Assembly (NCBI GenBank): GCA_963771045.1
Contig: CAVYRW010000004.1
Span: 512,001 to 576,000, forward strand
Length of the DNA: 64,000 nt
DNA from: Waddliaceae bacterium
GTDB taxonomy: Bacteria > Chlamydiota > Chlamydiia > Chlamydiales > SLFE01
Direction: 5' to 3'
A program made the translations under genes and the position numbers. Below, piece by piece: positions 48,980-50,543 of this stretch (its first letter is position 1; each line of letters begins with the position of its first letter). The notes under the pieces are model-generated. The model had not been told where the DNA came from and made no database searches. It worked only from the letters and a program-made list of their open reading frames with translations.

Positions 48980-49037
48980 GGCGTTGTTGCATAAATCACC
49001 ACTGAGACCACCGAGCTCACTGAGAGATTATGAGAGA
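48980..49037. repeat. Left extended inverted end with three CACnGAG units
   Basis: GGCGTTGTTGCATAAATCAC-CACTGAGAC-CACCGAGCT-CACTGAGAG-ATTATGAGAGA; 47 of 59 aligned positions match the reverse complement of 50485-50543. Confidence 0.85.
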
Positions 49038-49041
49038 GGAA

Positions 49042-49449
49042 TTAAATGATTAGACGCCTAATCCCATTTTTTAGAAGTTTTACATTGAAATTGATGAGCA
49101 AACCTCTGCCACCACCATTATGCTTAAGATAGGATAGAAGTTGGGCCTCATGAACAGGCAAGAAATTGGCCACAGATTTTATCTCCAAAATAACCTTATC
49201 TTCCACTATCATATCGATCCGGTAGCCTGAGTCTAGCTTTTTATCACGATAAATAATAGGTACTGGTATCTGCCGGTTAACTTTCAAACCCGCAAGGTTT
49301 AACTCGTAGCAAAGACAAGTTTCGTATGTCGATTCAAGCAAGCCTGGACCTAATCTTCGATGAACTTCAATCGCAGCACCTATGATTTCCCCTGTTAAAA
49401 GGTCATTTCTTTTTTGGTTGGCTTCTTCAGTTGTGTGGGTACTAGTCAT
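49042..49449 (-). CDS. GxxExxY protein (PD-(D/E)XK-like nuclease fold)
   Basis: IIGAAIEVHRRLGPGLLESTYETCL, YRIDMIVEDKVILEIKSV, HEAQLLSYLK, GLLINFN. Confidence 0.93.
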   Translation of the reverse strand: MTSTHTTEEANQKRNDLLTGEIIGAAIEVHRRLGPGLLESTYETCLCYELNLAGLKVNRQIPVPIIYRDKKLDSGYRIDMIVEDKVILEIKSVANFLPVHEAQLLSYLKHNGGGRGLLINFNVKLLKNGIRRLII

Positions 49450-49533
49450 CTTTTCTCCAAAAAGGGCGAATGCGAGCTTGCCGACAAATACCTAATACTC
49501 TAATTTTTAGTTGCAACAAATTGGAGGATCAAG

Positions 49534-50478
49534 ATGAAGGCAAAATATCGCATTCGCAACTGGAACGACTATAACAAATCTCTTATTCAAAGGGGAAGCA
49601 TAACTGTTTGGTTTTCTGAAGATGCTATCAATAAGTGGATGGCTCCAAAAGAAATAGGAAAAAAGGGGCGTCCAAAACTCTATTCTGATGACGCTATTCT
49701 CACCGCGCTCATTATTCGATCGGTTTTTCATCTTCCATTGAGAGCACTCGAAGGATTTTTGACATCTCTTGTTATGATTTTATCTGTTGGTTTATCGATT
49801 CCTTCTTATACTCAAATTTGTCGGAGAGCTAAGTTGTTGGGGCAAGAGTTGAAGAAACTTTCGAAAAAAAAAGTCACCAATATTGTAATCGATTCAACCG
49901 GTTTGAAAGTGTACGGAGAGGGTGAATGGAAAGTTAGGCAGCATGGAATCAGTAAAAGGCGAACATGGAGAAAGCTCCATCTGGCAGTCTGCCCTGACTC
50001 TCACGAAATTATTTTCGAAATTCTTACTGAAAATAACGTTGCAGATTGTGAAGTGTATCCAAAACTTCTCGAGGTAATGCCGAAATCAGTTAAGCGCACA
50101 TATGGAGATGGGGCTTATGATACTAAGCGATGCTATGCTGCAAATGTAGTTCACGGCTCAATTCCTATTATTCCACCCAATAGGAATGCTGTTTTTCGAG
50201 AAAACATATCTCCTTCTTGGAAGATGCGGAATATCAGTTTGCTGGAAATTTCAGGTTTAGGAGGTGATGATGATGCAAGAAAATTATGGAAAAAGTTGAA
50301 AGGTTATCATCGTCGATCACTTGCAGAAACAGCCATGTTTAGATTTAAACGATTCTTTGGAAATGATTTAAGAAGTAGAACTCTGGAAACCCAAAGGGCT
50401 GAATCAAGGGCAAAATGTGAAGCACTAAATATAATGACAAAGCTGGGAATGCCTGAAAGTGAATTAATAGCAGCTTAA
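49534..50478 (+). CDS. IS5-family (IS903 group) DDE transposase
   Basis: YRIRNWNDYNKSLIQRGSITVW, IDSTGLKVYGEGEW, WRKLHL, GDGAYD, GYHRRSLAETAMFRFK. Confidence 0.95.
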   Translation: MKAKYRIRNWNDYNKSLIQRGSITVWFSEDAINKWMAPKEIGKKGRPKLYSDDAILTALIIRSVFHLPLRALEGFLTSLVMILSVGLSIPSYTQICRRAKLLGQELKKLSKKKVTNIVIDSTGLKVYGEGEWKVRQHGISKRRTWRKLHLAVCPDSHEIIFEILTENNVADCEVYPKLLEVMPKSVKRTYGDGAYDTKRCYAANVVHGSIPIIPPNRNAVFRENISPSWKMRNISLLEISGLGGDDDARKLWKKLKGYHRRSLAETAMFRFKRFFGNDLRSRTLETQRAESRAKCEALNIMTKLGMPESELIAA

Positions 50479-50484
50479 ATCAAA

Positions 50485-50543
50485 TCTCTCATATTCTCTC
50501 TGTGCGCTCTTGTGAGCTCTGTGGTTAATTACGCAACAAAGCC
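50485..50543. repeat. Right extended inverted end with CTCnGTG units
   Basis: TCTCTCATATTCTCTCTGTGCGCTCTTGTGAGCTCTGTGGTTAATTACGCAACAAAGCC. Confidence 0.85.

Follow-up and report, generated by a model that had tools for sequence, protein, structure and literature searches.

Positions 48980–50543 of the window (the whole 64,000-nucleotide stretch of Waddliaceae DNA that was analysed) hold a 1564-bp element of the IS5 family (IS903 group), which carries a GxxExxY gene and a transposase gene oriented divergently across 84 bp. A perfect 9-bp target-site duplication, CATTGGAAA, absent from the initial annotation, brackets the element (left copy 48971–48979 and right copy 50544–50552, both plus strand). 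Each end of the element has two layers. The outermost 18 bp are IS903-type tips (48980–48997, plus strand; 50526–50543, minus strand); 16 positions of the left tip and 14 of the right agree with the IS903B tip. Inside the tips lie the repeat arms. The left arm (48998–49037, plus strand) consists of the units CACTGAG (49000–49006), CACCGAG (49009–49015) and CACTGAG (49018–49024), followed by the inner word TATGAGAGA. The right arm (50485–50525, minus strand), inverted relative to the left, consists of CACAGAG (50517–50523), CACAAGAG (50507–50514) and CACAGAG (50498–50504) on the minus strand and ends in the same inner word. These coordinates confirm the three CAC(n)GAG units that the initial annotation had placed inside an IS903-type tip at each end, and global alignment of 48980–49037 with the reverse complement of 50485–50543 reproduced its count of 47 identities in 59 positions, with 11 mismatches and 1 gap. 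The 9-bp unit period that it described holds at the left end but not at the right, where the middle unit is an 8-mer and the periods are 9 and 10. The inner word ends, as had been noted, 4 bp from the stop codon of the GxxExxY gene (49042–49044) and 6 bp from that of the transposase gene (50476–50478).

The GxxExxY gene (49042–49449, minus strand) encodes a 135-residue protein of TIGR04256/PF13366 with a PD-(D/E)XK fold, and the IS5-family (IS903-group) DDE transposase (49534–50478, plus strand) has 314 residues. The divergent leader between them (49450–49533, no strand assigned) contains a promoter-like TTGCCG (49478), a 17-bp spacer, TAATTT (49501) and a T-run, an arrangement common to plain IS903-group leaders; these boxes may serve as a promoter. 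A consensus promoter scan gave 6 matches against 4.1 ± 2.0 in shuffles, nothing above the shuffled level, the leader boxes being too weak for such a scan. Neither end of the element yielded an intrinsic terminator. The neighbouring xerC-like gene (47893–48804, minus strand) has its promoter side adjoining the element. Elsewhere in the window, two overlapping ORFs at 51215–51954 resemble a single frameshifted caspase-like (His-Gly...Cys) protein, the first ORF having no Pfam match, and a collagen-like gene with GPTG repeats and a C-terminal globular part occupies two frames at 53634–55632.

The transposase matches the NF033579 profile with 289 bits (cut-off 140) and contains the domains PF13737 and PF01609; its catalytic residues are presumably D120, D192 and E265, assigned by the IS5 motif. 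The genome contains 16 full-length copies of the element that are at least 99.8% identical and have identical ends, every one with the GxxExxY gene. Twelve of the 16 are flanked by a 9-bp duplication, the duplications having no clear consensus; the remaining four lack one, and their flanks do not cross-match. There are in addition one truncated copy, one 306-bp gene-less derivative and one mosaic (G000 C4:1701314–1704285). The mosaic is split by an IS256-like element (410 aa), and an end of that same element adjoins the right tip of the copy at C4:790462–792025. In another genome of the same genus, this element is found at sites which lie empty in the studied genome, and a near-identical element occurs on a metagenome contig. 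Chance or an assembly artefact is ruled out by the 16 copies, their duplications and these two further occurrences. A clean empty site for the studied copy was not found, the corresponding locus in G249 being other DNA. Shorter or rearranged derivatives that retain both ends and are flanked by duplications were also recovered (L272, L281, L296, L302, L303 and L305). Many Chlamydiota genomes hold miniature derivatives of 140–250 bp, down to a tip-unit-tip hairpin of about 50 bp (for example L285 1496–1548, L272/L281 1496–1744 and L199–L203). We conclude that the whole 1564-bp unit almost certainly moves by IS903-type DDE transposition through its tips. PMC3299598 describes IS903 ends as bipartite, with an inner part bound by the transposase and an outer part for cleavage; given this organization and the resemblance of both tips to that of IS903B, the 18-bp tips are likely sufficient for jumping. 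The composite element was not found on plasmids, where the search gave 9 short matches and 8 GxxExxY records, none of the 8 annotated over an IS. A pattern scan of viral contigs returned 120 loci; as neither GxxExxY nor transposase matches lie in any of them, these are likely chance hits.

The passenger is a full member of the GxxExxY/PDDEXK_3 family, matching TIGR04256 with 146.9 bits (cut-off 35). Across 45 aligned sequences G36, E39, Y42, D79 and K91 are invariant and E89 is conserved in at least 90%; the passenger retains D79-E89-K91 and Q103-Y107 intact. Its predicted structure (pLDDT 90.6) best matches PD-(D/E)XK enzymes, with Z scores of 6–7.6 and Foldseek E values of 0.003 and weaker; at these modest scores the matches include Cas4 SSO0001, lambda exonuclease, AdnA, restriction enzymes and Hjc. 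Judged by its fold, the passenger is a predicted nuclease. Comparison of four IS-borne GxxExxY genes gave pN of 0.047–0.065 against pS of 0.36–0.83 and an omega of about 0.02–0.10, values obtained with dS near saturation and with one stop codon in L003. The transposase gave 0.06–0.12 in the same analysis, so the GxxExxY gene is at least equally constrained, and purifying selection acts on it. A 217-bp contig from an RNA run covers part of the gene with 7 differences and is no evidence of expression. Of 401 genomes of the phylum, 116 have GxxExxY genes, and an estimated 7100 or so stretches of the genome collection carry a match to the peptide pattern. The named sequences closest to the passenger point to a Chlamydiota-like host.

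The collection of transposase loci covered 400 genomes of the phylum as well as metagenomes, the pathogen-family genome G005 being left out, and gave 121 distinct elements. Seventy-two of these were classed as passenger-free (no GxxExxY match, both tips visible and the left tip less than 330 bp from the transposase). The initial annotation had named such relatives as the comparison on which its fusion proposal depends: 71 of the 72 have plain ends, with fewer than two units at both ends, and the lone exception (L217/L006) is an internal deletion that retains the last GxxExxY codons. Sixteen rows bear GxxExxY. Of the 14 in which a tip could be located, representing 13 distinct elements, 12 have at least two units; the other two are L209, whose units are decayed, and L120, whose tips are plain. 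In 33 of the 121 elements the arms could not be judged, 4 of these having an arm at the visible right end. Plain 18-bp ends are also found in an unrelated IS903-group family of the same genome (44–46% identity), and the ends of IS903B and ISSod12 have no repeat arms. Over end positions 19–58, left-right identity is 0.80 in the element and 0.49 ± 0.07 (maximum 0.70) in 71 plain relatives, a set filtered on the absence of units, for which reason the array counts were redone without that filter. The order tip, arm, nuclease, transposase, arm, tip recurs in several Chlamydiota families. Since plain relatives transpose with the same tips, neither the arms nor the nuclease is required for jumping. 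In two passenger-free elements, L221 and L222, about 40 bp of the two ends match although units are absent, and at L221 these ends contain the tip core a second time, in inverted orientation. Two IS903-group elements (L146 23–1612 and L149 142–1752) have no arms and carry a different divergent passenger of 183 residues with an N-terminal SEC-C-like cysteine motif. The slot just inside the left tip was thus filled twice, once by GxxExxY and once by the 183-residue protein.

A scan of the 2.57-Mb genome for CAC.GAG..CAC.GAG, a check proposed with the initial annotation, returned 37 matches, of which 36 are left ends of the element family and one lies elsewhere. The same annotation had pointed to CACAGAG/CTCTGTG repeats beside stand-alone GxxExxY genes and had made its proposal depend on their enrichment there. 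A two-unit array is present within 150 nt of the gene in 57 of 65 non-chlamydial free loci, against 11 of 1305 distant control windows and 6 of 6500 shuffles. The 65 loci are what remained of 80 after removal of 11 chlamydial and 4 short-flanked ones, and because the 80 were the best of 559 relatives found, the sample is biased towards the studied GxxExxY subfamily; other subfamilies have different repeat words. Within the 65 the arrays are oriented, forward upstream of the gene in 42, reverse downstream in 49 and as an inverted pair in 38. Whether the arms are IS-borne, chlamydial free or other free ones, CACAGAG is their most frequent word and the periods are mostly 8–10; words of the CACnGAG type accompany free GxxExxY genes in many phyla and in an archaeon. 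The left arm of the element has the downstream-arm sense and, following GxxExxY, reads CTCTGTG-like, which is also the case in free cassettes; the right arm has the upstream-arm sense and would be an upstream arm pushed 1 kb away by the transposase gene. Taken together, these comparisons point firmly to a common origin for the element arms and the arms of free GxxExxY cassettes.

Arms also occur without genes. The studied genome has two intergenic, tip-less arm pairs (G000 C4:951108–951201 and C4:1320135–1320245) and two intergenic half arms (C4:856569 and C4:887895), and more gene-less pairs are present in relatives. The genome-wide arm scan gave 4 matches outside the element family compared with 0–4 in 5 shuffles, so the case for the gene-less pairs rests on their inverted layout and not on their number. 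L249 has several tandem arm pairs around GxxExxY, and L018 is a cassette with another repeat word and duplicated gene starts.

The two-layer ends, with an IS903-type tip outside and GxxExxY-type arms inside, suggest that the element is a likely fusion of two selfish elements. The plain ends of passenger-free relatives and the arrays at free genes support the fusion of a repeat-flanked GxxExxY cassette with an IS903 transposase that had been proposed, and we hold this origin with high confidence. Composite and plain leaders can be aligned by eye (a CTTG.. box, a TAA(A/T)T box, the T-run and GGAG), and the homology reaches back to about the end of the plain element's tip. Entry of the cassette just inside the left tip is therefore likely, as is an origin of the right arm by later copying. 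Insertion of an IS into a free cassette was rejected because it would place the tips inside the arms, while the leader homology runs to the tip position. No relic of an inner arm was found in the element family.

A careful phylogeny built from 42 of the 114 transposases placed 13 rows that bear arms or GxxExxY on a single branch (84/85), with three plain rows alongside, and two more arm-bearing rows, L123 and L025, fall outside it; a single clade for all 15 was rejected (p-AU 0.00026). Quick trees served only as leads for these later topology tests. As the arm-bearing transposases are not one clade, repeated capture, swapping of transposases or losses must have occurred. Recombination is visible in L003, whose transposase is nearer that of the studied element and whose nuclease is nearer that of L112. 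Six 1.76-kb elements with TA-type ends in a Waddliaceae genome (L033–L038, about 2331–4092; 99.8–99.9% identical), assigned to the IS630 type by protein and ends, each contain a whole arm-GxxExxY-arm cassette; here a different IS family made the capture independently. A further IS903-group element, L120 (1–1860), has plain tips; its GxxExxY gene is co-oriented and belongs to a different lineage, and its two genes are separated by a gene-less arm pair. By analogy, L033–L038 and L120 may both be regarded as first-stage captures.

The IS-borne genes are also interleaved with tip-less cassettes. We built a codon tree of 25 GxxExxY genes (9 IS-borne, 6 tip-less neighbours and 10 outgroup), leaving out L002 and L032 as near-copies, L020 and L197 for their long branches, and L196 and L120. 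Tip-less cassettes nest among the IS-borne genes, and a single IS-borne clade was rejected with a p-AU of 1.3e-6, for a group defined after the quick tree had been seen and with an outgroup not cleanly on one side. One tip-less cassette, L007, forms a 100/100 clade with the studied GxxExxY gene. Both of its arms carry the inner TATGAGAGA, the ATG of which is the L007 start codon. The cassette lies directly after the stop codon of dxr and before rseP, genes named by their translations; it starts 9 bp past the dxr stop, too close for a tip to fit in between. The L007 genome (97% complete) gave no tip-plus-arm match and no transposase match at E ≤ 1e-40. L301 is a tip-arm-GxxExxY-arm-tip unit from which the transposase is absent. 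Nested structures were observed as well: L123 has tandem, nested tip-plus-arm ends (76–112 and 1488–1641), and L207 has a tip and arm inside a gene-less arm pair (1014–1150). On this evidence of nesting, the tip/arm and cassette systems appear to insert into each other. The simplest reading of the tip-less cassettes would be release of the inner unit by a mechanism of its own, although repeated swapping with host cassettes would account for the nesting equally well. Joints that skip the inner unit were not found in contigs from four runs, three of DNA and one of RNA.

The two arms of an element resemble each other more than arms of different elements do. Left-right identity is 0.77 within and 0.68 between elements (n = 11), with a permutation p of about 1e-5 that overstates the matching, since the elements are kin and a left arm's own right arm is its best match in only 4 of 11. 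A period of 8, or particular degenerate units, recur at both ends of one element. In the G249 copy L306, the three units of the left arm are flanked by a tip and an inner word that are both of the right type, which reads as a left-to-right conversion tract limited to the units. These observations show that the two arms of an element are homogenised by arm-to-arm copying. Such homogenisation need not involve the nuclease, because the ends of L221 and L222 are matched over about 40 bp without units.

We consider it probable that an IS903-group IS absorbed a GxxExxY cassette, jumps through its 18-bp tips and keeps the arms as predicted nuclease sites. In the first step, a free arm-GxxExxY-arm cassette would have inserted just inside the left tip. 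Arm-to-arm copying would then have set a matching arm inside the right tip, the inner arm being lost, and it is through these two events that the transposase gene would now lie within the cassette. In the third step GxxExxY would still bind or nick the arms; repair between the paired arms would keep them matched and would occasionally free a tip-less arm-gene-arm cassette. The transposase would thus carry the nuclease along, and the nuclease system would preserve its own arms. That the arms are working GxxExxY sites is predicted from their co-occurrence with the gene, and we rate this part at slightly better than even.

The arms might instead, after the same fusion origin, now be subterminal transposase sites for binding or synapsis, with GxxExxY retained because it benefits the element or host in some unrelated way. 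Within the main clade the arms follow the tips with very little variation in spacing, they are kept in miniature derivatives that transposed, and left-right matching is expected of such sites. The units are, however, unlike the tip core, and 71 plain relatives have the same tips without units. The spacing between tip and arm ranges from about 2 to 14 bp and a period of 8 or 9 differs between elements, while ends that lack one or two units still have duplications (L303), a loss that may pre- or postdate the jump. We regard this explanation as unlikely. Rather less likely still is that the arms are passive relics copied by gene conversion, the nuclease being selected for an arm-independent job such as defence or repair. 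Conversion is seen directly in L306, long matched ends without units exist in L221 and L222, and the arms of L209 have decayed; yet conversion alone would not preserve the CACnGAG word and its period while the transposases drift to 57–74% identity, nor does it account for the same word being kept beside free genes in many phyla and an archaeon. Least probable of the three is a role in RNA, in which the pyrimidine-rich CUCUGUG array would signal transcript termination or stability (as a Rho loading site, for instance) and so insulate the element: the arms do begin 4–6 bp past the stop codons with identical sense on both transcripts, and the lack of an intrinsic terminator at either end would suit such a signal, but free cassettes also have an opposite-sense upstream arm, often overlapping N-terminal codons, gene-less inverted pairs exist, and single arms, considered as hairpins or as known RNAs, fold no better than shuffles (z 0.88 and 0.06) and gave no Rfam match above noise.

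Returning to the arms as nuclease sites, the element would possess two functional end pairs, each serving its own, unrelated enzyme: the DDE tips outside and the GxxExxY arms inside. It could then be a shuttle for an undescribed nuclease-plus-repeat mobile system, seeding tip-less cassettes into conserved operons, a proposal that we advance tentatively and place somewhat below an even chance. On the same dual-end reading, and with the same reserve, GxxExxY might be a sequence-directed mobility enzyme that was domesticated at least twice by IS903-group elements and once by an IS630-type element.

The element shares with IS903/IS903B and ISSod12 a DDE transposase (44–46% identity), 18-bp GGC..TGTTG tips and a 9-bp duplication. 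It differs from IS903B and ISSod12 in its length of 1564 bp, its second, divergent gene and its ends matched over 58–59 bp with arms, and is thus a variant and not a plain member of this compact, single-gene group. Cas4 enzymes have a four-cysteine Fe-S staple; the RecB-like core of GxxExxY resembles that of SSO0001, but the staple is absent, the only cysteines being C45 and C47. TnpB is an RNA-guided RuvC enzyme. Unlike TnpB elements, the element combines a PD-(D/E)XK fold with a DDE transposase, and no Rfam match above noise was obtained in a search that covers known families only. Like the IS605/IS607 elements with TnpB, reported in PMC10691335 to be more mobile on average, it pairs a transposase with a conserved second nuclease gene. 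Transporter IS (tIS), as described in PMC9330008, likewise hold a passenger gene between their inverted repeats that moves with the element; here, unlike there, the passenger's own cis-sites make up the inner two-thirds of each end, with the transposase gene enclosed between them. The REPIN/RAYT system, as presented in PMC3116915, resembles the present one in tying an enzyme gene to inverted repeats and in having gene-less intergenic inverted doublets. It differs in that the enzyme here is PD-(D/E)XK and not an HUH/Y1 tyrosine transposase, and the arms are tandem 7–8-nt words, not palindromes, nested inside DDE tips.

The PDDEXK_3 family is described in PMC3424549 as having no known function and multiple transfers, and the table row on the family there mentions neither flanking arrays nor transposons; 10.1101/2021.01.26.428298 mentions GxxExxY in passing. 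In the literature covered (mostly open-access main texts, with ISfinder outside its scope), we found no description of the arms, the element or the function of GxxExxY. The locus represents an IS903-group transporter element with ends built from another, apparently undescribed gene-and-repeat system. It joins, in one recently active 1.56-kb unit, GxxExxY, both of its candidate sites and an independent, assayable transposase. Because arms, tips, nuclease and transposase can be removed separately in a laboratory strain, the function of GxxExxY is directly testable in this element. Among the unexplained gene-and-repeat units found in bacteria and archaea, GxxExxY with its repeats is one of the most common, and if our reading is true, the element would be a clear case of a mobile element building its long terminal repeats from the cis-sites of another.
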